The position numbers and the translations under genes were made by a program. From assembly GCA_024278275.1 (NCBI GenBank), contig JAJRTN010000045.1, forward strand, positions 14,560 to 78,559: a stretch of DNA of 64,000 nt, given 5' to 3'. Positions 25,938 to 43,295 of the stretch are shown here, one piece after another; positions within the stretch are counted from its first letter, which is position 1; every line of letters starts with the position of its first letter. The notes under the pieces were generated by a model that was not told the DNA's origin, made no database searches, and worked only from the letters and a program-made list of their open reading frames with translations. The stretch is from Candidatus Hydrogenedentota bacterium (lineage in GTDB: Bacteria; Hydrogenedentota; Hydrogenedentia; Hydrogenedentales; JAJRTN01).

Positions 25938-26936
25938 CTAATCCTCGTAATAGTACCGTTCGCCGGTGGACTTTATCTCCAGGGCGATGCCGTGGCGGCG
26001 GACGGCGATGAGCGTGGCCTCCGACCCGGCAATGCGCTCGCCCACGTAGACCTTCTCCATGTTGATAATCGCGTGGGCGTAGGGCCGGTCGGGGCTGGGC
26101 TCCTTGAGCATGTTGATGGTCATGTTCTCAAGCCCGTAGCGCCGCTTCTCCGTCTCCCGCAGGGGGGGCAACTTGCGGATGTCATCGGGGAGGGGGCGCT
26201 CCCGGGGTTTTTCTGGAACGGGACCAGGACGGGATGGTTTGGGCGCGGGGGGGGCCACACGGGCCACTCGCAGGGGGGCGGGCGTCGCGGACGCGGCGGA
26301 CGGCGCGGGTTCCACGTTTCGTGGTACCGGTGACGGCGCGGGCGTTACGACGGCCGGGGCCGCTCCGCCCGTGGTAAACTGCACCGTTACAACGGTGGGC
26401 GCGGCGGGTTGGGGGATTACGGCCTGCGGAACCGGCGATGGAGGCGCCGGTTGAGCCGACGGGGCGGCCGGGGCCGGCGTGGGCGCCGGACGCGGGAGGG
26501 GCGCGGGTGTCGTGGTCTCGGATACGGGGTGCGGCGCGACCGGAACCTCATGCGGTTGCACCGGCGTTGAGACGGGCGGCGGCTCCATGGGCGCGGGGGG
26601 GGATTTCGGGGCGGATACGGCGGCCAATGGCCCGCCGGGGGCCGGTGTTTGTTGCGCTTCGGCGCCATTGCCTGTTCCGGCCAGTTTCAGGGCCAGCACC
26701 GTGGAGACGGTCAACATGGCGGTAAGCAACACGGCACCGCTGGCGACATAGAGCCAGGGGGAAACCTGGCGTTTGCCTCGGCGGCGGCGTTCCAGGGCGG
26801 CTTCGGCGGTCTTTACGTCCATTCCCGCGGGCGGCGCGGATGACACGGGCGACAGGTCGGGCCGTGGGTCCGCGCCATTGTCTTGGGCGGCCCGCTCGGC
26901 TTCGACTTTTCGTAGTGCGTCGAGAATGGAACTCAT
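25938..26936 (-). CDS. Proline-rich bitopic membrane protein, GspB/ExeB-like candidate (partner of GspA)
   Basis: Short cytoplasmic N-terminus, one TM (WLYVASGAVLLTAMLTVSTVLAL), ~200-aa Pro/Ala-rich periplasmic linker and a ~70-aa C-terminal globular domain. Located in-operon 2 genes downstream of the GspA-like ATPase. The GspB assignment rests on position and architecture. Confidence 0.4.
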   Translation of the reverse strand: MSSILDALRKVEAERAAQDNGADPRPDLSPVSSAPPAGMDVKTAEAALERRRRGKRQVSPWLYVASGAVLLTAMLTVSTVLALKLAGTGNGAEAQQTPAPGGPLAAVSAPKSPPAPMEPPPVSTPVQPHEVPVAPHPVSETTTPAPLPRPAPTPAPAAPSAQPAPPSPVPQAVIPQPAAPTVVTVQFTTGGAAPAVVTPAPSPVPRNVEPAPSAASATPAPLRVARVAPPAPKPSRPGPVPEKPRERPLPDDIRKLPPLRETEKRRYGLENMTINMLKEPSPDRPYAHAIINMEKVYVGERIAGSEATLIAVRRHGIALEIKSTGERYYYED

Positions 26937-26952
26937 GGTCTACCTTGGTCCG

Positions 26953-28023
26953 CTATTGTTTTCCGTCAAACCAGTAGGTTTGAAACGCTTCGAAGGCGGA
27001 GGCCAGGGCCTCCACATTCTCCGGGGGGGTGGGCGGATAGATGCCCGCTACCAATTCCAGGCCGCCGGCGGGATCGCCGAGGGTCCGGACCTCCTCCTCG
27101 ACCAGTTCCCGGATCTCGGTGGGCGTGCCGTAGGGCACGGTGGTCTGCCGGTCCACGTCGAGGCTGATACAGATACGCCCCTTCAGTTCACGGCGCAGGT
27201 TCTCGATTCCGTTGCACAAGTCCTGCGGATTGATAATGGTCACGCCCGCCACGATAAGATCGTCCAGCAGATCCATGATATAGCCGTCACTGTGCAGGTA
27301 GACCTGCTTGCCCCGCGCGCGGCAGGGTGCGATAAGCCGCTCGTAGACGGGCTTGCAGTAGCGGCGAAACATGGCCGGGCTGATGATGGAAGCGTTCTGC
27401 GAACCCAAGTCTTCCGCCAGGCTGATCATGTCCACGTCCGCGTCGAGATACTCCTCGACAATCGTCTTGTTGTGTCCATACAGGGCTTCGACGAGTTCGT
27501 CCAGCCGGGGCTCCTCGGTGGCCATGTCGATCATCAGGTTCTCAAAGCCCCGCAGATAGGTAAGCCGCATGAAATGGAAGCCATGGGGCGGCCCGCCTGC
27601 CGCCAGTTGCCCGGCGGCCTTGCTCCGGGCCAGGTTTTCCCGGATCCACGCCCAGTCCACGGGGCCCCGATCGCCCGTCTCCAGGGGATCGGGCACACGG
27701 TAGTTGGACCACGCCTCCCAGGAGGCCAGGGGGTGGCGCGTCACCACGCCTTCAATACCGTTCATGGGGGTTTCCCACACGCAACCCCACGCATCGGTGA
27801 AGGGCTCGCCCACCTGGTGGGCGGGGCCGAAGCGGAAATGGTCATAGTCCCGCTTTCCGGGCACGAAGTCCGGCCATAAGCGGGGGTGGCGGGCCACGAC
27901 TTCCTCGAGGTCATGGCGCAACTGGTCCCAACTCGCGTTCGAGATATGAAGCCCCACCGGCATGTATTCCGGATGCTCAAACGATGCGTTCCGCAGGTAG
28001 TTCTCGCGTGGACTCAGCCCCAT
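26953..28023 (-). CDS. Uroporphyrinogen decarboxylase (URO-D) family protein (paralog 2), embedded between gspA-like and gspB-like genes
   Basis: 356 aa, URO-D/MtaA-like fold and paralogous to 8569-9627. Intergenic gaps to neighbours are only 2 nt and 16 nt, so it is predicted to be co-transcribed. Confidence 0.7.
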   Translation of the reverse strand: MGLSPRENYLRNASFEHPEYMPVGLHISNASWDQLRHDLEEVVARHPRLWPDFVPGKRDYDHFRFGPAHQVGEPFTDAWGCVWETPMNGIEGVVTRHPLASWEAWSNYRVPDPLETGDRGPVDWAWIRENLARSKAAGQLAAGGPPHGFHFMRLTYLRGFENLMIDMATEEPRLDELVEALYGHNKTIVEEYLDADVDMISLAEDLGSQNASIISPAMFRRYCKPVYERLIAPCRARGKQVYLHSDGYIMDLLDDLIVAGVTIINPQDLCNGIENLRRELKGRICISLDVDRQTTVPYGTPTEIRELVEEEVRTLGDPAGGLELVAGIYPPTPPENVEALASAFEAFQTYWFDGKQ

Positions 28024-28025
28024 GC

Positions 28026-30218
28026 TCAGTTTTCCTCGGGGGTTGGCGTGCCGTCGGCGCCGCCATCGTTCCCGGTTTGGCCGTCGGTCAAAGGTGGTAT
28101 GCCGGGGGCCGGTGCCGTACGCTCCTTGAGATCCAGGGGACTCAGCGGACCCAGGCCGGTGGGAAAAAAGGGTACGTCCAAGTCCTCAATCGAAAGCAGG
28201 TTCGTGTCGTCAGCAACAGGGAATCCGGATGCCTTTTCCGACTCCGTCGCGGGTGCTTTGGCGGTCTTCACCTTTTCCGAAGGTGTCGGTGTTGGCCCGG
28301 TCTTCACCTTTTCCGAAGGCGTCGGGGTTGGTCCGGTCTCCGGGGCTTTGGGTTTCGGCGGGACCGGCGACGACGGCGGATTCGCCCGGGCGATGGTTTC
28401 CAGCGCTTCGGGCCGGTCCTCGCCGGGCACCGCCCGCTTGAGCGTGGGCGAACCCGTTCCGGGCAACCAGCTATTGAGCACCATGCGCACCTGGCGTCCC
28501 GCGATCCCATCGACAATCAACCCGGTCTCCGCCTGGAGCTTGGATACGGCCCCGGCGGTGTGAGAGTCGTATCGGTCGTCTCGGGCTCCTTCTTCCAGGC
28601 GGTGCAGAAGGCGGAGGTTGGCCTTGAGAGCGGCCACGTAAGGCCCTTTACGGCCCAACATCATGTCGGGGGCCTTCGGGTCTTTATCACGCCACAGGAC
28701 AATGGCCTCATCGGCGTAGGCATCCAGAATCTCCCCCCGAGGCGCTTCCACCACCTTATCGCCCTCGGCGGTCAGCCACAGGCGATCATCGTCCGCGCCA
28801 ACCAGGGCGACCCAGTAATCCCGTGAAGCCGATCCGGTTTTGCCGGGCCGAAGACGGATCAGGGCGGGAAGATCCAGGGCTACCAGTTGACTCAACGCGG
28901 GCCGAATACGTTCGTGCTTGAGTCCCAGCTCCCCGGCCAACGTCACCAATTCCCTGTCGCTGGCGGGCAAAGCGCGATCCTCGGGAAGGGTAACATCCCA
29001 AATGCGCAGCAAGGTGCGGCTGGCGGAACGGCACGCGGTTTCCGGGTCCGTGGCCAACAGCGCTTCCCCCAGCGGGATCGTTTCGCCGGGCGCTTTCTCC
29101 GGCTCCTGCGCTTTTCGGGTTACGGACACTTCCGGGGTTTCCGGCGGATCAACCGTTTTTTCCGGCGACGTGTTGTCCCGGGTCTTGGCATCCGCAGCGG
29201 GCGTCACCGGATCGCCTGGACGCGCGACCGGTACCCCGAGGGTCGCCACATCGCGGAAAACGCGGACCCCATCCACGATCTCGCCCAGGACGGGGCCGAA
29301 CTGTTGGACGAGGAAATAGGCCAACACGAGCGCCAGCAATAAGGCGGGACTCGGCAGCCAGCGCCAACGGGAAAGGCCGGCACGTTTCTTTTTGCCCGTC
29401 CTTATCTTCTCACCGCGAATTTCGACGGCCGCCTTCTTCACGATGGCCGCCGTGATGATGTGGGCTTCCCGGGTATAACCGATGAGCAACGCGCGGTCGC
29501 AGATGGCGTTGATCATGCGGGGAGTTCCCCCCGAGTGCTTGTATATTTGCCGAATGGCGGACCGGTTGAATCGCACGCTCCGCCGTCCGCCGGCGGTATG
29601 AAGGCGGTACGCCACGTATTGCAGCGTTTCCTTCTCGCTCAGTTCCTTGAGGTGATACCGGGCCGTGATGCGCTGGTTGAGCTGGCGCAATTCATGGAGG
29701 GCAAGCATTTCGCCCAATTCCGGCTGACCCACCAGCACGATCTGGAGCAGTTTTTCCGTTTCGGTCTCCAGGTTCGAGAGGAGACGGATCTGTTCCAACA
29801 CCTGGGGCGAAAGATTCTGTGCCTCGTCGATAAGCAGCACGCAGTTCCGGCCCCGGGTCTTGGCTTCGAGCAGGTAAACGTTAAGCTCCTCGACCAGGTC
29901 GAGCACATTATCCCCCACGGGGGTCAGCCCGAATTCCGTCAGGATCTTGCGGATGAGCTCCACCGGCTTGAGCGAGGGATTAAAGATGAAAGCCAGTTCC
30001 GTGTCGCTGTCAAGCTGGCGCACCAGGTTACGGCAGATGGTCGTTTTGCCCGTGCCGATCTCGCCGGTGACCATGACGAAACCCGAACCGCTCTTGATGC
30101 CATAAAGCAGGTGGGCAAAGGCCTCCTTATGCTTCTCGCTCAAGAAGAGGTATTTGGGGTCGGGCGTGAGGTTGAACGGCTTTTCGCTCAGCCCATAGAA
30201 GGCCTCGTACATGACCAC
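28026..30218 (-). CDS. gspA: GspA/ExeA-like AAA+ ATPase with TM segment, periplasmic peptidoglycan-binding domain and Pro/Thr-rich repeat tail
   Basis: N-terminal …LSEKPFNLTPDPKYLFLSEKHKEAF…GFVMVTGEIGTGKTT…CVLLIDEAQNL… is the ExeA/MshM-type AAA. TM WRWLPSPALLLALVLAYFLV. PG_binding_1-like YDSHTAGAVSKLQAETGLIVDGIAGRQVRMVLNSW. ORF-track start 30218 is GTG. An ATG at 30212 has RBS GAGGTG. Confidence 0.8.
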   Translation of the reverse strand: MVMYEAFYGLSEKPFNLTPDPKYLFLSEKHKEAFAHLLYGIKSGSGFVMVTGEIGTGKTTICRNLVRQLDSDTELAFIFNPSLKPVELIRKILTEFGLTPVGDNVLDLVEELNVYLLEAKTRGRNCVLLIDEAQNLSPQVLEQIRLLSNLETETEKLLQIVLVGQPELGEMLALHELRQLNQRITARYHLKELSEKETLQYVAYRLHTAGGRRSVRFNRSAIRQIYKHSGGTPRMINAICDRALLIGYTREAHIITAAIVKKAAVEIRGEKIRTGKKKRAGLSRWRWLPSPALLLALVLAYFLVQQFGPVLGEIVDGVRVFRDVATLGVPVARPGDPVTPAADAKTRDNTSPEKTVDPPETPEVSVTRKAQEPEKAPGETIPLGEALLATDPETACRSASRTLLRIWDVTLPEDRALPASDRELVTLAGELGLKHERIRPALSQLVALDLPALIRLRPGKTGSASRDYWVALVGADDDRLWLTAEGDKVVEAPRGEILDAYADEAIVLWRDKDPKAPDMMLGRKGPYVAALKANLRLLHRLEEGARDDRYDSHTAGAVSKLQAETGLIVDGIAGRQVRMVLNSWLPGTGSPTLKRAVPGEDRPEALETIARANPPSSPVPPKPKAPETGPTPTPSEKVKTGPTPTPSEKVKTAKAPATESEKASGFPVADDTNLLSIEDLDVPFFPTGLGPLSPLDLKERTAPAPGIPPLTDGQTGNDGGADGTPTPEEN
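28263..28334. repeat. Tandem 2 x 36-nt direct repeat (33/36 identical) encoding TGPTPTPSEKVK x2 in GspA-like tail
   Basis: ggtcttcaccttttccgaaggtgtcggtgttggccc / ggtcttcaccttttccgaaggcgtcggggttggtcc. Confidence 0.7.
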
Positions 30219-30501
30219 CTCGCGAAGGGATCCTGCCAGTAATCTGTTGACTGATTAGCCTACCATCTTACGGTCCCGGAATCAACCAATGATCCGCACA
30301 ACCCTACCGGCGACGGGGGTTTAGCAAAGTTTCCGCCATGGCGGCGGAAGCGCCTTGTCACGGTTGTGCGATATAGTCCTTTACCCGTGAAGGCCTGTAC
30401 AAATGCTCATGAAATCGTGTTTGCCGCCGCGGCCCACCGTCATCCCCCGCGAAGGGGGGGCTCCATGGGTAGGGGAAACGCCCTGCCCGTTCCCGTGGAT
30501 G

Positions 30502-30518
30502 CCCGCGTGCGCGGGAAT
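30502..30518. repeat. Palindrome CCCGCG-TG-CGCGGG followed by AAT; second copy of the CGCGGGAAT-type motif
   Basis: Lies in the 354-bp gap between gspM and gspA-like. Compare 18741-18760. Confidence 0.45.
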
Positions 30519-30572
30519 AAGGGCAGGCATGGTGTATGTGAACGATGCCCGGTGGGTTTTTCAAACACCTTT

Positions 30573-31088
30573 CTACACCTTAAGCGTGGCAAAGGTCACC
30601 GAACAGAGGAGGCCTTTCTCACCTGACGCGGGGCGTATCCACATCTCGCGCATAACCACCAAGTCCTTGTGGTCATGCACCCGGTGCAGGAACTTCACGA
30701 CCTCCCCGAGTGATACGCCCTCCAGTGAGACCTTGACGGCAGGCTGGTTCTCGTTGCCCCGGCGGCGGCTGGTCACGTTGTCGATACGTGCGCGATCCTT
30801 CAGCCGCGATTCCGCCAGGGCCTTATCGAGGAAGGCGTAGAGGTCGAAAGAGGGACTGCGCCCCTGAAGCCGCTGCTTGAGCGCCTCCTGACTGCGCAGG
30901 CGGATCCGCTCCTCGTCTCGCGCGTCGCGGGTGAGTTGAAGCTCGTGCCGTTTCCGGGCCACTTCGCGCCGTGACCGTTCGTAGTCCTTGCGCGGTCCGG
31001 CGGGGATATAGGCCAGCAGGGCCAGCACCAGCAGAAAGGCCACCCCGCCAAAGAACAGGCCGGCCTTTTCACGACGGTCAAGATTCAT
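30573..31088 (-). CDS. gspM: Type II secretion system protein M (GspM)-like
   Basis: 171 aa, bitopic (TM GLFFGGVAFLLVLALLAYIP), last gene of the gspC-M series. Overlaps the gspL stop by 11 nt. Confidence 0.55.
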   Translation of the reverse strand: MNLDRREKAGLFFGGVAFLLVLALLAYIPAGPRKDYERSRREVARKRHELQLTRDARDEERIRLRSQEALKQRLQGRSPSFDLYAFLDKALAESRLKDRARIDNVTSRRRGNENQPAVKVSLEGVSLGEVVKFLHRVHDHKDLVVMREMWIRPASGEKGLLCSVTFATLKV

Positions 31089-32541
31089 GGTCCGCGCCCT
31101 CCTTCCTGTCTTCGGGGCGGAAAGCTATGATGGTGAATGCCGTCGTGTTCCCCTTGGTGCTTTTCCGGGGCTCATCCCGAATTGTAAAGTATGGCGAATT
31201 GGCCAGGTCCTGGAAAACCTGGTTGAACACGGCCACATCGTCGGTATTTCCCTCGATGGTAAGCCAGCCGGCCTTGGCACCGGGGGGAGAAAACTTGATG
31301 CTTGTAATATGTACTTTACGGTCGGGCATTTTGCGGCTGATCTCCGCCAGCAGATCCAGCGTCACGGGGGCGTTGAACATCTCGGTGTCCACGTCCACGC
31401 CGATACCTCGGGACTCCAAGTCCGCAATTTCATCGTTAATCGCCTGAATTTGCCCGTCAAGAGCGGCGATTTCCGCGTTATTCGAACGGATGCCCAGTTC
31501 GTAGTATCCCACCCAGCAGATCAAGGCCAACAATGCCAGGCACGAGGAAAACATGAGGTGGGCGATTACACCCCGCAAAGCGCCCTCGGCTCCCTGCTCG
31601 GCACGAATGAAATCCAGGGCGAAAGGCCCGCCCAGCGCGCCGGCGGCCGCCCCGCAGAGTCCCTCCCAAGTGTTTCCTTCCGCCGTGCCGGGGTCCTCTC
31701 CGAGCACTTTCACCGCCCCACGCAAGGCGGGCAACATCACTTCGGACTCGACCCGCATGTCGAGCGCCCGGGACAGGACGTCCGACTCGGCGGGGTCGAG
31801 CGCAACGCCCGTCACATGCAACGTATCCAGTTCCGCGTCGCCACGCCACCGTGCCAGAAAGGCGCGCAGGGTGTTCTGCACCTCGCGGGCAACCGCCCGG
31901 GGATCTTCCCGCAACGTATCAACCCCGCACGGGATATGTCGAAAGTAGGCCAGCCCGCCATGGTAGAGAATGACGAGGTTCGATCCCGTGGCCCCGGCGT
32001 GCAATACGGCCGCAAGCCCCTTCGGCATGCGACGACCCGCGGCCCACAGCCCGGTGAGGGCGGGCGCGTCAAGGGTCACCGCGTCGGCAACGACACCGGC
32101 GGCCTTGAGCCATTCCAACTGTTCATCCACCTGCTGACGGCGAACCCCCATGGCGAGCACTTCCGTCTCGCCATCGAACTCGGCCACGGGTTTGAAATCC
32201 AGCAACAGCTCGTCAATGGGAAAGGCGAGGTAGGGCTCCAGTTCGAACTGCACGGCCGCGGCCACGCGGCGGCGGCCACGAAAGGGAATGGTGAGGGCGC
32301 GCACGATGCCATATTGACTGCCCAAGCAAAGAACGAAAGCGGCGGGCCGGTGTTTCAGCCCGTCCAACAGCCGCTCGATGGCGGCCACCGTTGCCTCCGA
32401 ACGCTGCTCGGGGTCCCCGCCGTTGATGGGCTCGACCAGCAAATCAAGCACTTTGGGCCGCCTGCCGCCGGTCTTGACGACGGCCAGGCGTACAACGCTC
32501 TCGCCTATCTCGATGGCGGCCAGCTTTACGCTAAACAACAT
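31078..32541 (-). CDS. gspL: Type II secretion system protein L (GspL): cytoplasmic actin-like (PilM-like) domain + TM + periplasmic PilN-like domain
   Basis: N-terminal MLFSVKLAAIEIGESVVRLAVV… (actin-like ATPase fold start), TM HLMFSSCLALLALICWVGYY, periplasmic C-terminus. 487 aa. Confidence 0.7.
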   Translation of the reverse strand: MLFSVKLAAIEIGESVVRLAVVKTGGRRPKVLDLLVEPINGGDPEQRSEATVAAIERLLDGLKHRPAAFVLCLGSQYGIVRALTIPFRGRRRVAAAVQFELEPYLAFPIDELLLDFKPVAEFDGETEVLAMGVRRQQVDEQLEWLKAAGVVADAVTLDAPALTGLWAAGRRMPKGLAAVLHAGATGSNLVILYHGGLAYFRHIPCGVDTLREDPRAVAREVQNTLRAFLARWRGDAELDTLHVTGVALDPAESDVLSRALDMRVESEVMLPALRGAVKVLGEDPGTAEGNTWEGLCGAAAGALGGPFALDFIRAEQGAEGALRGVIAHLMFSSCLALLALICWVGYYELGIRSNNAEIAALDGQIQAINDEIADLESRGIGVDVDTEMFNAPVTLDLLAEISRKMPDRKVHITSIKFSPPGAKAGWLTIEGNTDDVAVFNQVFQDLANSPYFTIRDEPRKSTKGNTTAFTIIAFRPEDRKEGADHES

Positions 32542-32638
32542 TCAACCCGCTCCAGCTTCTTTGAAAAGACAGGGCACACACCCCCGTCCGGAAAACCGAT
32601 GCCCAGTATAGCGTTTTGTGACCAACGGCTTCGACCCT

Positions 32639-33787
32639 CTATCGGATGACACGCCATTCCAGGATGCGGAACGGCTCCGCGGGCGCTTCGGTACCCGCCG
32701 GAAAGTCCGGTACGGCCCCCCCTGTTTCCAGGGGCGTGCGCCACACATAGGCCTCGATGCGAACCATGTTTTCCCCGGCCAGTCCATCGCCGCGAATGCG
32801 AAACACATTGCTGTTCACCCGAAAGGCGCGTTGGGAGGGCGGCGGCGGGGCGTCTGGATCCCGGGCCCGGTTTCGGTTTCGCGTCCGGTCTTGATCCCGG
32901 CCCGGCCCCGGGCCCACGTAATCCGCCAATTCCCCCACATTCCCGAAAGGCTGCTCTTCGTGGGTACGAATGTAGATGTCTTCACCCGCCGTGAAATTGA
33001 ATCCAGACCCGTCGTAGGCGCCGACCACGGCGGCCAGCACCTCCTCCCGCGCGGTATTGGCGTTGACCCGTCCCTGCCAATCCCCATGGACCGTGAGATA
33101 CTCGCTAAGCGGCAGTTGATCCCGTTCCGGGTCGCCCCAATAGATGTCGGGGGTGATGCCTTTGATCAACAGGAGTTCTTCAATGGTGTCCATCTGGGCA
33201 TTCTTGCAGGGATAAGGGATTTCCGAAGCCTCGTAGAAATCGTTTTCCGCGCCGCCGGGTCGCTCGTCGTCCTCGTCGCCATAATCCAGCCAATCCAGGA
33301 TGGCGTCCACGGGATCCTCGGCATCGGGCGCGCGGTCGAGAAAGAAAGCGCGCAGGGCCTCAACCAATGCCTCCCGCTCGACGGGCGGACTCTGGCTGTA
33401 GTCAAGCAGGGCATTGAGGTTGATCTTGCCATACTCGTCGTCGATGGTGGCGCGCATGTACGCGTCTTCGTTGATGGGATCGAAAGGATGGCCCGCGTAC
33501 CACACATCCAGGGCCGTATCGAGGACGGTCAGGTCGTACTGAGGGTCCGAGTTATCCGGAAGCAGGTCAGCCGCGAGGAGGGCCAGGCCTTGGGCCACGG
33601 CGGACTTCGCGGCGAGGCGGGCCTGTAGGTCATTGCCCCGATTCTCAGCGAAAGAAGCCTCCAACTGGCCGTCGTAGCTGAAGTTTACGACCAACACGGA
33701 AAGGAGTACGATGAACAACAGGGCGAGAATGAGAGCCATGCCCTCGTCCCGTCGCGCCGGTCCATGTTCACGGTGATAACTGCTCAT
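32639..33787 (-). CDS. gspK: Type II secretion system minor pseudopilin K (GspK)
   Basis: GMALILALLFIVLLSVLVVNFSY (non-cleavable-type pseudopilin N-terminus), …YGKINLNALL… GspK signature, 382 aa. ATGA overlap with the gspJ stop. Confidence 0.7.
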   Translation of the reverse strand: MSSYHREHGPARRDEGMALILALLFIVLLSVLVVNFSYDGQLEASFAENRGNDLQARLAAKSAVAQGLALLAADLLPDNSDPQYDLTVLDTALDVWYAGHPFDPINEDAYMRATIDDEYGKINLNALLDYSQSPPVEREALVEALRAFFLDRAPDAEDPVDAILDWLDYGDEDDERPGGAENDFYEASEIPYPCKNAQMDTIEELLLIKGITPDIYWGDPERDQLPLSEYLTVHGDWQGRVNANTAREEVLAAVVGAYDGSGFNFTAGEDIYIRTHEEQPFGNVGELADYVGPGPGRDQDRTRNRNRARDPDAPPPPSQRAFRVNSNVFRIRGDGLAGENMVRIEAYVWRTPLETGGAVPDFPAGTEAPAEPFRILEWRVIR

Positions 33788-34617
33788 CGCTGTTCCCTGA
33801 ATATGCCGTCGGGATCGTCGATCAGATCGGTTCCCAAATGGTTCATATCGAGAAACCGGTCCACCACGCCCATCCCCGCGGCCAAGGGGATGGTCACGTC
33901 AAGGTCCGCCGTCTCGCCGAATTCAATGCCGGCCTCCAGGTCCCCCTGGTATTCGGCCTCGCTCCGGGGAAAATCGATCCGGATCCAGACGGCCCAGGGC
34001 AAGCGGTTGGTTTCCAACGAATCCCAGTCCTCGACCCAGTCCTCGCTTTCAATGTCGTAATACAGCACATCGAAAGACCGCACGGGAACCTGCCGGCTCG
34101 TGCCCAGCGCCTCATAGTCTCCGGAATCCCGTTCCTCATTCAGACTGGACAGCACCAGGGGCCGCTCGGTAATGGTGAGCATGACGGACGGCTTGCGGTC
34201 GAGGTAGTCCCGGTCCATGTCGTAAGCCAGGGAACCGTCTCCCCCATCCTCCTCCACCTCCCCCACTTCGTAACTTACCACCTTAAATATGCCGGGCAGC
34301 GCGTAGGGACCGCTCATGGGCTGGGAGGTACAGAAAGACACGCTATCCGCGGGGCCCAACATGGTCTCGCCGTTCTCCCCCAGAAACTGGTACTCCGTCA
34401 CGACGCACGCCGAATCAGCGTAAACCGTGCTGAAATTGGTGAAAAGGTTCTCTTGCAGAATCTGCCGGAAACGCAGCTCTCTCGACAAGTCCCGCATCAT
34501 CTCGGTGGCGCTGATCACCGAATTGAGACTGACGAAAACAACCATCACCAGGATGGTGAGCAGGGTGAGCGCGACCAGCATCTCGATGAGCGTAAAGCCC
34601 TGCCGCCGGGGGATCAT
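33784..34617 (-). CDS. gspJ: Type II secretion system minor pseudopilin J (GspJ)-like, extended (277 aa)
   Basis: Prepilin N-terminus MIPRRQG|FTLIEMLVALTLLTILV (G-1, F+1, E+5). Position between the I-like and K genes. Acidic C-terminal extension. Confidence 0.65.
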   Translation of the reverse strand: MIPRRQGFTLIEMLVALTLLTILVMVVFVSLNSVISATEMMRDLSRELRFRQILQENLFTNFSTVYADSACVVTEYQFLGENGETMLGPADSVSFCTSQPMSGPYALPGIFKVVSYEVGEVEEDGGDGSLAYDMDRDYLDRKPSVMLTITERPLVLSSLNEERDSGDYEALGTSRQVPVRSFDVLYYDIESEDWVEDWDSLETNRLPWAVWIRIDFPRSEAEYQGDLEAGIEFGETADLDVTIPLAAGMGVVDRFLDMNHLGTDLIDDPDGIFREQR

Positions 34618-35138
34618 CGCGCGCCTCCCCGCATACGCGAACGGGTGTTGCCGAAACCGCCGGGGCGGGAATTGCCATTGGACGACGCCCCGCTTCGTGA
34701 AAAAGAACGGCTTTTCCCCGAATTACCGCGGCCCGTGCCGCCATCCAAGTCCTCCGGCCCCGTGTTAAAACAAAGAAAGGTCACTTCCCGCGTATCCGTC
34801 GGGCCGGTCAGGCGCACGTCCACCGCATAGAGGGGGATCAATTCATCTTCATCGGCGGTGGCTTCGTAAGACCACTCGAACCCCGGGTACCGCGCGCCAA
34901 AATCACCGCCCCCCGCAAGCGCGCCGTTAATCACCTCCACTTCCGCGAAGGCCACGCTCCGCTCGAGAAGCAACCGCATGTTCACTTCCTCATCCACCAC
35001 CTGGTGAAGCTGCAGGGACTGGCTGTGCGCGGCCAGCAGGATAAACATGGCGGAACCCAGTATGGCCAGCGCCGCCAGAACTTCCATGAGGGTGAAACCG
35101 GCGATTGGGGTCCGCTGTGCAAAGGGGGCGCGTGTCAC
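34614..35138 (-). CDS. gspI: Type II secretion system minor pseudopilin I (GspI)-like with Gly/Ser/Arg-rich C-terminal tail
   Basis: …PIAG|FTLMEVLAALAILGSAMFILL prepilin motif. GTG start overlapping the gspH stop (GTGA). The C-terminal 40 aa is low-complexity (GRGNSGKSRSFSRSG…). Confidence 0.65.
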   Translation of the reverse strand: MTRAPFAQRTPIAGFTLMEVLAALAILGSAMFILLAAHSQSLQLHQVVDEEVNMRLLLERSVAFAEVEVINGALAGGGDFGARYPGFEWSYEATADEDELIPLYAVDVRLTGPTDTREVTFLCFNTGPEDLDGGTGRGNSGKSRSFSRSGASSNGNSRPGGFGNTRSRMRGGAR

Positions 35139-35959
35139 CGGTCCGGCCTCCCTTCAAAGGCTTCCGATTCACCCGTGACGGGATCCCAGATCACGGTGTA
35201 TTCATCGCCATCGCCGTTGGCCAGGAGGAAGACCGTCTCCGCAGGGAAACCCAGCGGCGTGATCTCGATCTCCACCACCCCCGAACGGTATTCCACGTTG
35301 TCCACATAAACCGCTTCTATCCACGCATCCTCGAGGGCCACGGGCATCAGCGTCAAGTCCTCAACCATCTCCTCGACGGGTTCCGCCTGATCCAGGTCGA
35401 GTTCCTCATCATCGAAGATGTCCACCTGGTCCAGAAACCCCTCCTCATGCACGACATTCCTGGCCCGCTCGTCGATGGCACGCCGGGCGAAATCGTTGAA
35501 ACGGTCCCCCATCTGTTCGTCGGCCAGTTCCGGGTCGAAATCCCCGTCCAAATCACCCAGGCTGCGAACCTTGTCGGTGCTGTTACCGCGGAGCAGACTC
35601 GACAAGTCATCCGCGGAAAGCCCCCCCTGCCGGAGATCCTTCAAACGCGACCACTGGTCTTCATCGGCCCCGGAACCGGGAACATCCTCCTCCGAATCGG
35701 GAATCACCCAATGTACGGTGTAGTACTCCTGCTTGTCCAGATCGATTCGAACCACGTGGCGTTCACGGGTAAACAGGGCCCGCCCATAAGCGCCGCGGCC
35801 ATAGCCCGCCAGGTGATTCGCCTCACGCTCAAGACCGCTGAAGGCGATGAGCGGCGCGAATTGCGGAAAGGCCACGGCGGCAATAAGACCGATAAGGAAG
35901 ATCACCACCATCAGTTCAATCAGCGTGAACCCGGCCTTTTCTCGAACGTAACCGTTCAC
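35135..35959 (-). CDS. gspH: Type II secretion system minor pseudopilin H (GspH)-like with long acidic C-terminal region
   Basis: Prepilin motif …VREKAG|FTLIELMVVIFLIGLIAAVAF. The real start is a GTG at 35959 preceded by AGGAAGG (5 nt spacer). The ORF-track start at 36076 would add a 39-aa unlikely leader. Confidence 0.65.
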   Translation of the reverse strand: MNGYVREKAGFTLIELMVVIFLIGLIAAVAFPQFAPLIAFSGLEREANHLAGYGRGAYGRALFTRERHVVRIDLDKQEYYTVHWVIPDSEEDVPGSGADEDQWSRLKDLRQGGLSADDLSSLLRGNSTDKVRSLGDLDGDFDPELADEQMGDRFNDFARRAIDERARNVVHEEGFLDQVDIFDDEELDLDQAEPVEEMVEDLTLMPVALEDAWIEAVYVDNVEYRSGVVEIEITPLGFPAETVFLLANGDGDEYTVIWDPVTGESEAFEGRPDR

Positions 35960-36010
35960 GGAACCTTCCTGTCTTGGCAACCGTTCACGGAGAACTCGCC
36001 CCTTTCGGTG

Positions 36011-36028
36011 CCGCTTGGATCCAAGCGG
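36011..36028. repeat. 18-bp perfect palindrome CCGCTTGGA|TCCAAGCGG, with a second hairpin (36038-36057) in the gspG-gspH intergenic region
   Basis: Read from the sequence. Lies 3' of the major pseudopilin gene on the transcribed strand. No U-tract. Confidence 0.5.
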
Positions 36029-36141
36029 ATGGAGTAGGGACAAGCTCCCACTTGTCCGTTGACCGGGCGTGGACAAGCCTCAAAAGGGACCTCTTGCCTG
36101 ACACAAAGCACTTGACGCCTACGGTCGCGCGGGTGCCCGCC

Positions 36142-36567
36142 TCAACTGTCTTGCTTCAGGTTATCGCTGCTGAGGTCGGCGTCATAGCCGGAACCGCCGG
36201 GCATGCCATCGGCGCCATAGGAGGTAATCACGAACTTGCTCGAACCTTCGACCTCGTATTGGTACGTGCCGCCCCAGGGGTCCAGGGGCACTTCATCGGA
36301 ATCAAGGAACTTGATGCCTTTGGGGTTGTTTATCAGCGCATCCAGGCTGTCCGGAAGCCTTTTGTAGCGCGTACGGTACATGACGACCGCATCCTTGAGT
36401 GAACGGATCTGGGCCTTGGCCGCCACCTGGTCGCCCTCATCGAGCCCTCCCATGACGTTCACGCCGACAATGGTCGCCAGCACGGCGATAATGGCGATCA
36501 CCACCATCAGCTCGACGAGGGTGAAGCCGCCATCCCCGCGCCGCACATGTCTCTTTTTACACTGCAT
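36142..36567 (-). CDS. gspG: Type II secretion system major pseudopilin G (GspG)
   Basis: MQCKKRHVRRGDGG|FTLVELMVVIAIIAVLATIV is the canonical type IV prepilin leader and N-methyl-Phe site. …PDSLDALI…PLDPWGGTYQY… are GspG motifs. 141 aa. Confidence 0.9.
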   Translation of the reverse strand: MQCKKRHVRRGDGGFTLVELMVVIAIIAVLATIVGVNVMGGLDEGDQVAAKAQIRSLKDAVVMYRTRYKRLPDSLDALINNPKGIKFLDSDEVPLDPWGGTYQYEVEGSSKFVITSYGADGMPGGSGYDADLSSDNLKQDS

Positions 36568-36820
36568 TACCCTGGATCTCCTTGTGCCGTGTCGTGAATC
36601 CGGGCCTTGGCGGCCCGGATGCCTGCTGTAAAAGCTGATTTCCTTTAACCACGAAAAAGTCGAAGCACACGCATTGGGATATCAAAAACACCGCCGACAA
36701 TGGTCGAAATCGCTTCCTTCTTTCGTATGTTTCGTGGTTCATCCCTTTTCCGGGGCGTGGGCATGGCTCACGCCAGTATAACGGATTCATCCTTCGGGTC
36801 GTTGACCACGGGCGTGGCTA

Positions 36821-38044
36821 TCACCCGATATTGCTGCTCATTTTCAAAATTGGCAACAAAATGGCCAATACGAGAAAACCCACGAAAAGGCCCATGACCA
36901 CGATGATGGCCGGCTCCAGGAGCCCCACCACGGCGTCGATGGTCAACCGCACATCGTCGTCGTAGGTGTCGGCCACGTGCATCAGCATGTCCTCGATCTC
37001 GCCGCTCCGCTGACCCAGGTCAACCATATGGAGGAGCATGGGCGGAAAAATCCCGGTCTCCCGCAGGGGTTCCGCGAGATCACGTCCACGGCGGACCCCC
37101 GCCTTCACGTCATCCATGTGCCCCTGTATATGGGCATTCTCAATGACTGATTTTACCACGTCGAGGGCGGGCAGCATGGTCAGGCCGCTTTGCAGCATGG
37201 TGCCCAGGGTGCGGGCGAAGCGCGCGCACACAAGCTTGAGATGCAGGTTGCCATAGATGGGAAAACGCAGCTTTACACGGTCCCACGTCTTGCGCCCCTT
37301 CTCCCGTGAAAGCCAAAAGCGCCACGACAGGTAACTTAGCAACACAGTCCCCAGGATAAGCCACCACCAATGTCCGATGAAGGCGCTGGTGCCCATGAGG
37401 ATTTTCGTCGCGAGTGGCAGTTCCGTGCCTTGCTTCTGAAAAATGCCGGTAATGCGCGGCACGATAACCATCATAAGGAAGATGATGACCCCCAGGGCGA
37501 AGATACACATGAAAACCGGGTAGGCCAGGCTCGACAGAATCTGCGACTTGAGCTTGGCCTGGTGTTCCAGGATGTCCGCCAAGCGCTTGAGCACGTCCTC
37601 CAGGGTGCCGCTCGCTTCGCCGGCGCGCACCATGTTCACGTAAAGGCTGGAAAAAACACGCGGATGCTCGGCCATGGCGTCGCCCAGATTTGAACCGCTG
37701 TTCACGCGGTCACGAATATCGTAGATGGTGGAACGGAGCCGGGGCTTGTTGGTCTGGTCGAGCAATGCCGCCAGCGCGCCCACCACGGGCATGCCCGCGC
37801 GGAGCAGGGTGGCGAGCTGGCGGGTCATCAACGCGAGATCCCGCGTGGAAATGCGCCCGCCCAGCCGTCGGCTCACGCCCTGCTCTTCCATCGCCGCGCC
37901 GGCGGTGGTCTCCCTGACGGAGGTGGGAAACAGCCCCTGGTCACGCAGCTTTTGGCGGGCCTGCACCGGACCGTCGGCATCCACCATGCCCTTGGTGGCT
38001 TTGCCCGTACCCTTTTCTATTGCTTTGTATTCGTAGACGGCCAT
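36821..38044 (-). CDS. gspF: Type II secretion system inner-membrane platform protein F (GspF)
   Basis: 407 aa. MAVYEYKAIEKGTGKATKGMVDADG… and a duplicated GspF/PilC domain organisation with 3 TM regions. Confidence 0.9.
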   Translation of the reverse strand: MAVYEYKAIEKGTGKATKGMVDADGPVQARQKLRDQGLFPTSVRETTAGAAMEEQGVSRRLGGRISTRDLALMTRQLATLLRAGMPVVGALAALLDQTNKPRLRSTIYDIRDRVNSGSNLGDAMAEHPRVFSSLYVNMVRAGEASGTLEDVLKRLADILEHQAKLKSQILSSLAYPVFMCIFALGVIIFLMMVIVPRITGIFQKQGTELPLATKILMGTSAFIGHWWWLILGTVLLSYLSWRFWLSREKGRKTWDRVKLRFPIYGNLHLKLVCARFARTLGTMLQSGLTMLPALDVVKSVIENAHIQGHMDDVKAGVRRGRDLAEPLRETGIFPPMLLHMVDLGQRSGEIEDMLMHVADTYDDDVRLTIDAVVGLLEPAIIVVMGLFVGFLVLAILLPILKMSSNIG

Positions 38045-38056
38045 GAGCGTGCGGCG

Positions 38057-39802
38057 CTACGCCTCCTCCACCACTTCCTCGACCGGATCGTCGCGGGTGA
38101 CGCGAACAATCTCCTCGAAGGTCGTCATGCCCCGCAGGGCCCGCTCCACGCCATCCTCGCGCAAGGTTCGCATACCGAGGCGCCGGGCCTCACGTTTGAT
38201 AACGTTGGAGTCCACATCGCGCAGGGCCAGGGCCTGGATACGCGGGCTCATGACCAGCAGTTCAAAGATGCCCGTCCGGCCCATGTACCCCCGTTGCGCG
38301 CACTGGTCGCATCCCACGGCGCGCCACAAACGGTGCGCGCGCGTGTCGTTGGCGTCAACGCCCAGCTCCGCCAGGTCCTCGGCGCGGGGCACGTATTCCT
38401 CGCGGCACTTCGGACAGATACGCCGCACCAGGCGCTGCGCCTGAATGGCGATGGTGGAGGACGTGACCAGGAAGGGCTCGATGCCCATGTTGACCAGGCG
38501 CGTCACCGCGCCCGCGCTGTCGTTGGTGTGAAGCGTCGAGAAGACGAGATGGCCCGTCAACGAGGCATGCACCGCCATATCCGCCGTCTCGTGGTCACGA
38601 ATCTCGCCGACCAGGATGATGTCAGGGTCCTGGCGCAAAATACTGCGCAGGCCCGATGCGAACGTGAGGCCTATCTTGGGCCGCACCTGGATCTGGCCGA
38701 TCCCGGCAATCTGGTATTCAATGGGGTCCTCTACGGTGATAATGTTCTTGTCGGGCGAGTTTACCTTCTGCAAGGCGGCGTAGAGCGTGGTGGATTTGCC
38801 GGAACCCGTGGGGCCGGTGACCAGGAAGATGCCGTGGGAGCTTTGCAGCAGTTTGTCCACGTGCGCGTGGACTTCTCCGTCCATGCCCAGCTTTTCGAGG
38901 GAGAAAAGGAAACTCCCTTTTTCAAGGATACGCATCACCACCCGTTCACCGTAGGCCGTGGGGATGATGGAAACGCGGATGTCGATCTCTTTGCCGCTCA
39001 GGCGAATCTTGATGCGACCGTCCTGGGGCAGGCGGTGTTCGGCGATATTCAGGTTCGCCATGATCTTCACGCGGGAAATGACGGCCGCCTGTTGACTGCG
39101 GGGCACGTCGAACTTCTCATAAAGCACACCGTCGATGCGGAAACGGATCCGGACCGTGTGCTCAAAAGGCTCGATGTGGATGTCGGAGGCGCGCTCCTTC
39201 ACCGCCCCGGTAATCAACAGGTTGATGAGCTTGATGATGGGCGCTTCGTTGGCCAGATCGAGAAGATCACGCTCGGATTCGATGTTCTCAAGCGTGTGAA
39301 TCGTCCCTTCATCGTCATCATCGGTCATGGTAATGCTGTCGATCATTTCGGCGGCATTCTCACCCTGCTGCTCGAAATAACTGTCAATGATCCGCTGGAT
39401 ATCGTCCTTCGGGCAGAGCACGGGAACCACCGGCCCGCCCAGCAGGAGGCGCAGGTCGTCAAGAGGCAGCAAGCTGACGGGGTCGTTCAACGCGACGTAG
39501 TAAGCGCTTCCGTTCTTGCGGAAAGGCACCATGTAGTATTCGCGAATGAAGTTGATGGGAACCTTGGTGGTGAGGGTCGGATCCACCTTATCTTCCAGGC
39601 TGGTCTCGACCGCGATGCTGAATTGCTCGCCCAACGCTTCGAGGATGTACATCTCATCCACATAGCCCAGCTCCATCAGCACCTCGCCCACGCGCTTGGG
39701 ACGAATCTTCTGCAATTCCAGGGCTTCCGTCACCTGCTCGGGATGGACATAGCCCTTCTCCAGCAGGATATCGCAAAGCTGTCGGTCCTGTGCCTTGGGC
39801 AT
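38057..39802 (-). CDS. gspE: Type II secretion system ATPase E (GspE)
   Basis: N-terminal GspE-N domain, Walker A GPTGSGKSTTLYAAL, Asp/His boxes, and the tetracysteine motif CPKC…CDQC. 581 aa. Confidence 0.95.
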   Translation of the reverse strand: MPKAQDRQLCDILLEKGYVHPEQVTEALELQKIRPKRVGEVLMELGYVDEMYILEALGEQFSIAVETSLEDKVDPTLTTKVPINFIREYYMVPFRKNGSAYYVALNDPVSLLPLDDLRLLLGGPVVPVLCPKDDIQRIIDSYFEQQGENAAEMIDSITMTDDDDEGTIHTLENIESERDLLDLANEAPIIKLINLLITGAVKERASDIHIEPFEHTVRIRFRIDGVLYEKFDVPRSQQAAVISRVKIMANLNIAEHRLPQDGRIKIRLSGKEIDIRVSIIPTAYGERVVMRILEKGSFLFSLEKLGMDGEVHAHVDKLLQSSHGIFLVTGPTGSGKSTTLYAALQKVNSPDKNIITVEDPIEYQIAGIGQIQVRPKIGLTFASGLRSILRQDPDIILVGEIRDHETADMAVHASLTGHLVFSTLHTNDSAGAVTRLVNMGIEPFLVTSSTIAIQAQRLVRRICPKCREEYVPRAEDLAELGVDANDTRAHRLWRAVGCDQCAQRGYMGRTGIFELLVMSPRIQALALRDVDSNVIKREARRLGMRTLREDGVERALRGMTTFEEIVRVTRDDPVEEVVEEA

Positions 39803-39804
39803 GC

Positions 39805-42336
39805 TTACCTCTTGATGTCGCCCTTGTGGAATCGGGTGTTGCCGCGCCGGCCCGTCAGTTCCTCCGACCGGGAAAGCGTGGGACGGCGCATGGTGCGATC
39901 CGCCTTTTTCTGCTTCACCCGTTTGAAGAAACCGCCCTGGAACATCTGCTCAAGGTTGTAGTCATGGTACTCGCCCACGGCGTGCTGGGTCAGGCGTTCA
40001 AGGTCGGTGCCTTCCTTGACAATGTGAGGGGTGACCAGAACCACCATGTTCTGACGAAGCCCGGACTTGCCCCGGCTGCCGAAAAGCCACCCGATGAGCG
40101 GAAGATCGCCGAGGATGGGCGCGGAGCTTTTGTTGCGGCTCACACTGTCTCGAATCAACCCCGCGATAACGGCGGTCTCTCCGTCCTTCACCCACACGAT
40201 GTTTTTCACGAGTGATTTGTTCGTGGTAGGCCCGAGAATGTTCGCGTCACCCACCGACTGCTCGGCATTGGCCACCTCCGAAACTTCCACGTTGAGATCA
40301 AGACGGACCTTCTCACCTTCGCTGATCTGGGGGGTCACGGTGAGCTGAATACCCACATCCTGGCGTTCCACGCGGGTGGTTCCAAAGTTCGAGCCGACCA
40401 GGTCGCCCGCATTGTTCACCGCCGGCCGGGAGGAACCCGTGACGAAAGGCACCTCCTGGCCCACGGAAATGGAGGCCTCCTCGTTATCAATAGTAACCAG
40501 GCTCGGCTGGGAGAGCACCTCCAGGTCGGTGAGTGTCTCCAGTGCCTGCATCAACACCGGCACATAGGGAACCTTTACGTCCTGGCCGTTTACGTTCAGC
40601 GTGATATCGTCGCGGACACCCACCGTCATGCCGCCGTTCGACCCCAATCCCAGAAGCCCCATGGCAAACTGTCCCCCCGCGGTGGCCAGGCTGGTGGCAT
40701 CCGCAAGCGGGCCATACAAGGAGGCAATGGTGGCGCTTCGTGTCAGGCCAAAGCCGTCGTTGCCGGTGACCCCCGCGGCGTTCACCTCGAGACTGAAACC
40801 GTCGGTAATGGTTACGCTCATCACCGTGGCCTCGACGTAAACCTGGCGGGGCGCCACGTCGAGGCGGGCGATAAAGGCTTCCAGCACGCGGTAATCCTGG
40901 GGAGAGGCCATGATGAGCAGAGAATTGGTCTGGTCGTAACGCGCGACGGAAACCTCCTGCTCGAAAGCCTGGATACCAGAGCCGGCCCCGCCGCCGGCAA
41001 CCTGCTGCACTCCACTGCGGGAGGCGGTCCCACCCCGGGACAGGGAGCTGCCCCGGCTGCTTCGGCGCCCGGCTCCACCCAGGATGGGCTGAAGAGCTTC
41101 CTCCACCTGCTCGGCATCGGCATTAAGCAGTTCGTAGATATGCAGGTTATTGGATTCAATGGGCGTGGGCGTATCGAGACGTTTGATGAGGTCGCGCACG
41201 CGCTCCATCATGCCTTCGCTTGCCACCACGATGAGGGCGTTGAGCCGCTCGTCCGGAACGATGCGCAAGGTCTCCTGGCGTTCACCTATAACCTGTGATG
41301 GCGCGGAACCGGGCACCGTGGGACGCACAGGACGCCGCGTCGTGCGCGTGGTCGGCGTGGGGCGCGGTCGGGATACGGCCGCGCCGGAGGCGGCGCCCGC
41401 TCCGTCATCCAGCAGCACCTGCTCGATCTGCATGGCCAGCGCATCGGCGCTGGCATACTTGATGATGAAAAACTCCATGTTCGTGTCGAGTCCGGGAATG
41501 TCCACCTCTTTCAGGAAGGCACGCACCCGCCGCAACCCATCGGCCGTATCCGTGATGAGAAGCATGTTGGTCGGCGCATAGGTGTCGATGCGGGAATTGG
41601 TCGAGGCCACCAGCTTGAGCGCACTCGACAGCTCCGCCGCGTCGGCGTATTGCACTTGCACCAGGTGGGTCGAATAGCCGTCAAAACTTTCCGGGATAAA
41701 GTCCAATCCCTTGTAGAGTTCGAGCTTGACTGAGCTGGTGGCATCCGCCGTGGCAACCACTTCGATAATGCGGCCATCCAGATTCTCGACCAGCGCGTAA
41801 CCGCGCCGGGCCAGAAGCGCTTCAAGCACCTCGTAAGCCATCTCCGGTGGAATCGCATCGTGCGTAATGAGGGTCACCGTGATCTGCTGCGCGCTGGGAT
41901 CCACGTCGAAGTTGCGCCCCGTAAGCATACCGATGCGCTTGATCACATCGTAGAGCGGAACGTCGGTGAAATCGAAATTGCTGGGCTCGCCCGGGGTACG
42001 GCCGTCCTTCTCGCCGTTAAAGGGTACCGAAATCCGCGGAGACGTGGACACGGGGGCGGCAGGCTTCGCGCCGGGAAGGGGGCGCCGCGTGGGCTTGGCG
42101 GCCGGACGTGGCCGGGGCGGCAGGGGCCGGGGCGACACCGGGGCGGGTTCCGCCTCCGCTTCGGCGTGGGCGTTGCCCCCGCTATTCTTCGCGGGAGCCA
42201 CGCTTTTCCCGGCTGGAGCCTCTTCCCGCGGCCAGGCGTGGGGCGCGCACAAAACGCCCCCTCCCAACACCAAGGCCAGACAAAGCAGTGTTTGTTTCAG
42301 CACGGCTAATCCTTCCAGCATGTGCCGCGTCACCAC
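39805..42336 (-). CDS. gspD: Type II secretion system secretin D (GspD) with Pro-rich N-terminal linker and C-terminal basic extension
   Basis: Signal peptide, N0-N3 domains, and the secretin domain …VPVLGDLPLIGWLFGSRGKSGLRQNMVVLVTPHIV…. 843 aa. Confidence 0.9.
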   Translation of the reverse strand: MVTRHMLEGLAVLKQTLLCLALVLGGGVLCAPHAWPREEAPAGKSVAPAKNSGGNAHAEAEAEPAPVSPRPLPPRPRPAAKPTRRPLPGAKPAAPVSTSPRISVPFNGEKDGRTPGEPSNFDFTDVPLYDVIKRIGMLTGRNFDVDPSAQQITVTLITHDAIPPEMAYEVLEALLARRGYALVENLDGRIIEVVATADATSSVKLELYKGLDFIPESFDGYSTHLVQVQYADAAELSSALKLVASTNSRIDTYAPTNMLLITDTADGLRRVRAFLKEVDIPGLDTNMEFFIIKYASADALAMQIEQVLLDDGAGAASGAAVSRPRPTPTTRTTRRPVRPTVPGSAPSQVIGERQETLRIVPDERLNALIVVASEGMMERVRDLIKRLDTPTPIESNNLHIYELLNADAEQVEEALQPILGGAGRRSSRGSSLSRGGTASRSGVQQVAGGGAGSGIQAFEQEVSVARYDQTNSLLIMASPQDYRVLEAFIARLDVAPRQVYVEATVMSVTITDGFSLEVNAAGVTGNDGFGLTRSATIASLYGPLADATSLATAGGQFAMGLLGLGSNGGMTVGVRDDITLNVNGQDVKVPYVPVLMQALETLTDLEVLSQPSLVTIDNEEASISVGQEVPFVTGSSRPAVNNAGDLVGSNFGTTRVERQDVGIQLTVTPQISEGEKVRLDLNVEVSEVANAEQSVGDANILGPTTNKSLVKNIVWVKDGETAVIAGLIRDSVSRNKSSAPILGDLPLIGWLFGSRGKSGLRQNMVVLVTPHIVKEGTDLERLTQHAVGEYHDYNLEQMFQGGFFKRVKQKKADRTMRRPTLSRSEELTGRRGNTRFHKGDIKR

Positions 42337-42380
42337 GCGGCGTATCGGCGCCGGTCCAGGACGTCTTGACGGTCCAAAAC

Positions 42381-43295
42381 CTAGCGCAGGTTGTAGGTGA
42401 TTATCCTCGGCTTGCCATTGCGAAGAATACCTATCCGGAACGACGACGCGTTCTGGTGCTTCTGTATAAGCTCCATGATCTTCGCTTGACTGTCGATTCG
42501 CTCATTGTTGACGGTCTGCAGAATGTCCCCGTCCTGAAGGCCGAGCTTCTTGGCCAAGGGATACCTGCCGATGTTGGCCGCCGTGACACCGGTCACGTTG
42601 CCCCGTGCGTCGCGCTTAATCACCGGCTTGATCTTGAGAAGTTCCGAGTAGTTGTTCACCAGCTCATCAGTAATCTCGGCCTTGCTGAGTTGGACTCGCT
42701 GCGTACTCCGGGTCGATGTTGAACTCGGCGGCTTGACCTTCGGCGCGGATGCAAAGCTTTCGCCATCGTCCATGCGCAACCGCTCCTGAACGGGCGGAGT
42801 TTTACGCTTGTTCAACAAGATAACCTGCCGCTTGTGAACTTCCGCCAAAACCACCTTGTCCACGACTTCCTCGCCCAGAAGAAAACTTTCCGGGTTGCCC
42901 CGGCGATCAAGATCCTGGATGAAGGCGCTCGCAAACAAATCGTCCTTGGAAAGGGCGATGGTGCCCATGAGGCGAAGGTTCAAATCCGTGTCGGGCAAAT
43001 CCTCCTGGACCGCCTGCACGGGCGGCGGAGGCGGCGCCTTGGACGGATCGAAGCGCCCGGCATCCCCGAACAGGCCATACTTGGTGATCACATCATAACT
43101 GGCCAGGGGACCCACCTCGGGCAAACGCATACCGCCGGCATCGGCGGGCGGCTCCGAACGTTCCTCCTGGGGCAAGGCGGCCTGGACAGGGTGCAAAAAC
43201 CGCATGACGAGTATACCGCCCATGGCCACGGCCGCCGCGGCCAAAGCCAAGTCCAACAGGATGAAGAATCGGCGTATCGCCAGGCCTCGAACCAT
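42381..43295 (-). CDS. gspC: Type II secretion system protein C (GspC)-like: TM + HR region + C-terminal PDZ domain
   Basis: TM FFILLDLALAAAAVAMGGILV. PDZ-like …GNVTGVTAANIGRYPLAKKLGLQDGDILQTVNNERIDSQAKIMELI…. First gene of the block. I prefer M65 of the ORF-track ORF (start about 43295). Alternative upstream starts are 43373 and 43487. Confidence 0.7.
   Translation of the reverse strand: MVRGLAIRRFFILLDLALAAAAVAMGGILVMRFLHPVQAALPQEERSEPPADAGGMRLPEVGPLASYDVITKYGLFGDAGRFDPSKAPPPPPVQAVQEDLPDTDLNLRLMGTIALSKDDLFASAFIQDLDRRGNPESFLLGEEVVDKVVLAEVHKRQVILLNKRKTPPVQERLRMDDGESFASAPKVKPPSSTSTRSTQRVQLSKAEITDELVNNYSELLKIKPVIKRDARGNVTGVTAANIGRYPLAKKLGLQDGDILQTVNNERIDSQAKIMELIQKHQNASSFRIGILRNGKPRIITYNLR

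Follow-up and report, generated by a model that had tools for sequence, protein, structure and literature searches.

A URO-D-superfamily enzyme gene between gspA and gspB in Hydrogenedentota is probably a lineage-specific gene-order variant

Introduction

GspA and GspB (ExeA and ExeB) form the secretin-assembly pair of the Aeromonas/Vibrio-type T2SS, and the known activities of GspAB, PG binding and docking on the secretin N0 domain, are periplasmic (reviewed in PMC9239104). In the window, i.e., the whole 64,000-nucleotide stretch of a Hydrogenedentota contig analysed here, a gspA-type gene and a gspB-type gene are separated by the gene of a URO-D-superfamily enzyme. Is this enzyme a component of the secretin-assembly module, or a metabolic gene that came to lie inside a canonical pair?

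Organization of the locus

The trio gspA, URO-D-superfamily gene and gspB is encoded on the minus strand, with spacers of 2 and 16 nt in the ORF map, directly downstream of a complete gspC-M cluster on the same strand. The features of the window are as follows.

8569..9627, plus strand: second URO-D-family paralog, 352 aa (PF01208, E 2.3e-21)
22212-24164, minus strand: family-2 glycosyltransferase (GT2) gene, downstream of gspB, distal (Pfam Glycos_transf_2)
24174-25811, minus strand: family-2 glycosyltransferase gene, downstream of gspB, proximal (Pfam Glycos_transf_2)
25938..26936, minus strand: gspB/exeB/outB-type gene, 332 aa (architecture, predicted fold, synteny)
26937..26952, minus strand: UROD-gspB spacer, 16 nt, containing AAGG (direct sequence reading)
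26953..28023, minus strand: URO-D-superfamily gene, 356 aa (PF01208)
28024..28025, minus strand: gspA-UROD spacer, 2 nt (direct sequence reading)
28026..30218, minus strand: gspA/exeA-type gene (ORF map, Pfam, NCBIfam, hhalign)
30219..30572, minus strand: non-coding gap of 354 nt between gspM and gspA (ORF map)
30573..43487, minus strand: core T2SS cluster (Pfam)

The original prediction had given the trio these coordinates and gaps, where exact ORFs are indeed found, and had rightly named the products as a GspA-type ATPase, a URO-D-superfamily protein and a GspB-type protein. The gspA ORF encodes 730 aa from a GTG codon, the NCBI-derived copy P0121 beginning two codons later (728 aa). From the gspA stop to the UROD start the sequence reads ...GAAAAC TGA gc ATG GGG..., with a GAGGA located 11-12 nt upstream of this ATG, within the 3' end of gspA. 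The second junction, from the UROD stop to the gspB start, reads ...AAACAA TAG cggaccaaggtagacc ATG AGT....

The T2SS cluster comprises gspC, gspD, gspE, gspF, pseudopilin genes, gspK, gspL and gspM (Pfam matches T2SSC, Secretin and GspD N0, T2SSE, T2SSF, N_methyl, T2SSK, T2SSL/PilM and T2SSM). The cognate secretin gene gspD, at 39805-42336, bears an N0 domain (PF21305, E 2.6e-10). The gap between gspM and gspA may hold an internal promoter for the gspA-UROD-gspB unit. A scan of this gap for consensus sigma-70 sites and terminators returned nothing above chance (shuffled expectation), and a promoter/terminator scan of the coding strand between the trio genes found nothing. Rfam has no match in the gap, and Rfam and tRNA scans of the whole window were empty. 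On the other side of the trio, gspB is followed after 126 nt by the first GT2 gene, itself separated from the second by 9 nt.

GspA and GspB

The N-terminus of GspA is a cytoplasmic P-loop AAA+ domain (Pfam AAA_22, PF13401, E 1.1e-28, residues 43-172). Against TIGR03015, the NCBIfam GspA/MshM-like ATPase model, the protein scores 304.8 bits over residues 3-268, slightly below the cut-off of 324.5. Direct sequence reading identifies a hydrophobic segment at aa ~285-307, and the periplasmic region (aa ~399-597) associates a C39-like part and a PG-binding part, the latter matching PG_binding_1 (Pfam PF01471, E 2e-7, residues 525-579). The Pfam GspA_C39-like model does not match the window GspA and BLASTP against E. 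coli GspA was uninformative; hhalign of the GspA family against residues 295-477 of E. coli K-12 GspA yields a probability of 89% (E 2e-6, 183 columns). The protein ends with a Pro-rich tail harboring a 12-aa tandem repeat. Among 8000 scored GspA homologs, many are named "general secretion pathway protein A" by their sources.

GspB possesses an N-terminal motif MSSILDALRKVEAE, a single transmembrane segment (aa ~60-83) and a long Pro/Ala-rich linker, followed by a C-terminal HR domain of ~75 aa. It is bitopic, and its periplasmic HR domain, of GspC-HR/PilP fold, belongs to the class of domains that bind secretin N0. Pfam, including T2SSB, has no match at E<=10 for the full protein, for its ortholog in contig L088 or for the C-terminal 90 aa. 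NCBIfam has none for the window GspB, and PDB sequence searches returned low-complexity matches alone, e.g., TrwE and ZipA. The comparison of the GspB family with E. coli K-12 GspB by hhalign was null because the latter does not possess an HR domain (PMC9239104). The "GspB-like" label is thus confirmed by architecture, predicted fold and synteny, and not by sequence profiles. The HR domains of Dickeya dadantii OutB/GspB (PDB 4WFW) and ETEC GspC (PDB 3OSS) display just 11-18% sequence identity with the window GspB. OutB also differs in its partners: it acts with the pilotin OutS and lacks a GspA counterpart, which the window GspB does have.

ExeA and the window GspA share the AAA+ ATPase, the transmembrane segment, a cysteine-peptidase-like domain and PF01471; ExeB and the window GspB share the bitopic topology and the periplasmic HR domain. 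The genes are colocated in both cases, those of the window adjoining the gspC-M cluster and a secretin with an N0 domain. The differences reside in the unrelated 1.07-kb enzyme gene that splits gspA from gspB, the very long Pro/Ala-rich linker of GspB and its lack of a Pfam T2SSB match, the Pro-rich C-terminal tail added to GspA, the glycosyltransferase genes that come after the pair, and the host, Hydrogenedentota here versus Proteobacteria for the Aeromonas/Vibrio-type ExeA-ExeB. Colocation of gspA with gspB is seen in 27 related loci, and in the window the enzyme gene alone stands between them.

The URO-D-superfamily enzyme

The enzyme matches the Pfam URO-D model PF01208 with 67.8 bits (cut-off 23.9, E 1.1e-18) over residues 97-345. 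Its AlphaFold model has a pLDDT of 94.6, and UROD and MtaA account for all of the best 26 Foldseek matches (E 1e-11 to 2e-8, TM 0.61-0.71, identity 13-18%). Its sequence shows neither a signal peptide nor a transmembrane segment. It is predicted to be a soluble cytoplasmic (beta/alpha)8 TIM barrel of the URO-D/MtaA superfamily.

It is very unlikely that the enzyme is a true HemE or an MtaA/MtbA-type corrinoid methyltransferase, as the PF01208 match, the weak matches to NCBIfam MtaA-type models (E 3e-11) and the UROD and MtaA fold neighbours could suggest. Against these models (NF040654, NF041608) it reaches 42.9 bits for a cut-off of 400, and TIGR01464 (HemE) does not match it at E<=1. MtaA (PDB 4AY7/4AY8) and UROD (e.g., PDB 1URO, 1J93) share with it the URO-D-type fold (PF01208), but these solved structures are just 13-18% identical to it and its subfamily carries its own invariant residues. 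The MtaA/MtbA analogy drawn in the original prediction breaks at the zinc site, where H-x-C...C is replaced by H-S-D and Val/Ala: profile alignment to 4AY7 superimposes the MtaA segment "lHicG" on "lHSDG" (H244, S245, D246) and "CGiaP" on "vGIyP". The second MtaA zinc Cys ligand thus aligns with Val/Ala, while H244 and D246 are invariant in the enzyme subfamily. Alignment with tobacco UROD places Val/Ala opposite the His of "nlGhGi"; the UROD "GHG" His is not conserved, and the N-terminal catalytic Arg/Asp region is not alignable by sequence. Among the gene families that recur around the orthologs (80 loci), none encodes a corrinoid protein or an MT1 methyltransferase. The enzyme belongs to a distinct, highly conserved, uncharacterised subfamily, which is neither HemE nor MtaA.

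This subfamily has 207 loci or more in the GTDB species representatives, its hosts belonging to Hydrogenedentota, Armatimonadota, Planctomycetota, Chloroflexota, Spirochaetota, Bacillota and others, and the homologs of the enzyme (n=1015) display 50-70% identity across phyla. The subfamily-invariant residues D77, H147, R158, D205, Q209, H244, D246, N265, Q267, D268, D289, D291, R292 and Q293 are kept. The five copies found in a gspA-UROD-gspB trio retain all 41 positions at which 80 other orthologs are invariant, and their identity to 68 outgroup orthologs (53-56%) compares with that of unlinked Hydrogenedentota copies (54-58%); they exhibit no rate acceleration, sequence change or extra domain. 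Between the window and contig L001, the enzyme is 85% identical, GspA 67% and GspB about 50%. Decay into a pseudo-enzyme, envisaged in the original prediction, does not agree with these data: all 41 invariant columns are intact in the most conserved of the three genes.

Gene order in related loci

Immediate succession of gspA and gspB is the rule in 27 related loci, where the gap ranges from -17 to +119 nt and overlaps of 4 nt are frequent. An unbiased, GspB-seeded metagenome scan retrieved the enzyme gene between gspA and gspB in only 1 of 28 loci with both genes. Conversely, no gspA or gspB is found within 10 kb of the enzyme orthologs (50-70% identical) in 80 of 80 genome loci, covering about ten phyla, with ~10 Hydrogenedentota and ~12 Bacillota/Clostridia MAGs. 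The sporadic insertion that the original prediction had opposed to its own reading is what these loci display, with the pair adjacent in the 27 and the enzyme elsewhere in the 80. The survey shows gspA immediately followed by gspB, often overlapping, to be the ancestral and prevailing arrangement. Contigs L091 and L088 provide a with/without comparison for the enzyme gene: L091, devoid of it, and L088, which has it, exhibit the same downstream order, Peripla_BP then GT2.

A few related, uncultured bacteria have the enzyme gene between gspA and gspB; as in most of their relatives the pair is adjacent and the enzyme elsewhere, the arrangement probably represents a variant of gene order specific to a lineage, and the enzyme is probably no novel part of the secretion machinery. 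The best explanation, considered probable, is that a metabolic gene already resident in the genome moved in between the two members of a canonical gspA-gspB pair for secretin assembly. In a few Hydrogenedentota lineages, the enzyme would be transcribed from the gspA promoter as gspA-UROD-gspB(-GT2...), and its translation may be coupled to gspA. It would go on catalysing its ordinary reaction in the cytoplasm, which may depend on a metal and would act on a small metabolite, and would have no mechanistic part in secretin assembly. Its position may reflect harmless gene-order drift, or mild selection for co-expression.

The orthologs stand alone in variable, often carbohydrate-related neighbourhoods, in which GH172/DUF2961, GFO_IDH_MocA, SDR, MFS, DegT and URO-D paralogs recur. 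A conserved neighbour was sought, and none occurs in more than 10 of the 80 loci; context therefore gives no function. GH172 and Peripla_BP homologs were also sought in the window and none was found. A literature search yielded no paper on uroporphyrinogen decarboxylase with GH172, nothing relevant on uroporphyrinogen decarboxylase-like proteins, and nothing useful on Hydrogenedentes with type II secretion.

Recurrence and phylogeny of the trio

The trio is present in five distinct contigs: the window, L001/L002, L133, L083 and L088. The gspA-UROD spacer is 2 nt in L001 and L133, 22 nt in L083 and 34 nt in L088. Spacers this short (2 to 34 nt) point to obligatory co-expression. The genes flanking the enzyme in these contigs, including GspA and GspB, have diverged to 36-67% identity. 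Clade 1 receives bootstrap values of 99.5% in the enzyme tree, 100% in the GspA N-terminal tree and 82.5% in the GspA C-terminal tree, while monophyly of all trios is recovered in 0 of 200 replicates of the enzyme tree and 1 of 200 of the GspA C-terminal tree. The trio contigs fall into two lineages of Hydrogenedentota that are separate in phylogeny. L137 carries the enzyme copy closest to that of L088, and no gspB follows it there.

Since the trio lineages are not monophyletic, the arrangement either arose from two independent insertions at the same junction or is an old one, long retained. Only one other URO-D family gene lies near gspAB in 471 kb of loci selected through gspA/gspB, and the adjacency is not due to URO-D family genes being common. 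Because of this rarity, either history exceeds the prediction of pure drift, and the recurrence in two separate lineages is the one unexplained point.

An unrelated gene inside an otherwise tightly coupled pair could also be a recently acquired foreign or selfish (mobile) insertion, as the original prediction had proposed in part. This is extremely unlikely: direct or inverted repeats bracketing the enzyme gene were sought and none was found, transposase and integrase genes are absent nearby, and the GC3 of the enzyme gene is 0.81 versus 0.75-0.83 in its neighbours, with an equal GC. Moreover, all trio copies fall among Hydrogenedentota orthologs, inside the host phylum, in the enzyme phylogeny, and the arrangement is old enough to have accumulated 15-30% amino-acid divergence within clade 1. 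On the grounds of GC3 and the lack of flanking repeats, recent horizontal transfer or a mobile element is rejected.

Possible roles in the envelope

The enzyme might instead be a true accessory of the GspAB secretin-assembly module, kept co-expressed by selection. It would then make or modify in the cytoplasm something that GspA or GspB needs (e.g., a peptidoglycan/envelope precursor), or regulate the GspA ATPase. The tight packing (2 and 16 nt) within the pair, the occurrence in two separate lineages, the retention of the trio while GspA and GspB diverged, and the general rarity of URO-D family genes in gspAB neighbourhoods are in keeping with such a role. However, the 27 related gspAB pairs do without the enzyme, the same invariant residues are found in orthologs of 80 genomes away from gspAB, including Bacillota MAGs, and the trio copies bear no mark in sequence, domain content or rate. 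In addition, the known activities of GspAB take place in the periplasm (PMC9239104), and the enzyme is a soluble protein of the cytoplasm. An accessory of this kind is quite unlikely, and a secretion role for the enzyme is not supported; the novel accessory function put forward originally has recurrence in two separate lineages as its sole argument.

A related proposal, also unlikely, links the enzyme to the downstream glycosyltransferase/acyltransferase genes in an envelope-glycan or sugar-modification module sharing the gspAB operon within this clade of Hydrogenedentota, its substrate being a sugar or nucleotide-sugar intermediate. GT2 homologs come after gspB in the window and, by tblastn, in L088, L091, L094, L102, L104 and L115. 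Elsewhere the orthologs adjoin GH172, GFO_IDH_MocA, SDR, a DegT aminotransferase and an MFS sugar transporter, and the invariant His/Asp/Gln/Arg cluster would fit a sugar-active, possibly metal-dependent TIM barrel. Against this, the window GT2 has a match in only 1 of the 80 ortholog loci (L004, ~6 kb away, 26% identity), and gspB parts the enzyme from the GT2 genes in every trio, as does Peripla_BP in L088.

It is likewise doubtful that the GspAB secretin-assembly and envelope module of Hydrogenedentota took on the enzyme, perhaps on two independent occasions, as a partner expressed together with it. If so, obligatory co-transcription in two non-sister lineages would reflect selection and not drift, and an uncharacterised TIM-barrel enzyme of the cytoplasm would be tied to the assembly of outer-membrane pores or to a coupled pathway of envelope glycans. 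The GspAB system, itself poorly understood, would thereby gain a first enzymatic partner in the cytoplasm.

If the relocated-gene explanation holds, the value of the locus is mainly annotational. It documents that gspAB pairs exist in Hydrogenedentota, with a GspB that escapes current sequence profiles and is recognisable by its fold only. It cautions that one tight gene cluster is no safe basis for inferring function, and it flags a large, strongly conserved, uncharacterised URO-D-superfamily subfamily that merits biochemical study in its own right.

The second URO-D paralog of the window

The original prediction had noted a second paralog at 8569-9627, which is real. Its product is 21% identical to the trio URO-D protein. 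The gene lies beside genes for an NAD-epimerase and a PilZ-YkuD protein and is unrelated to the gspAB locus.

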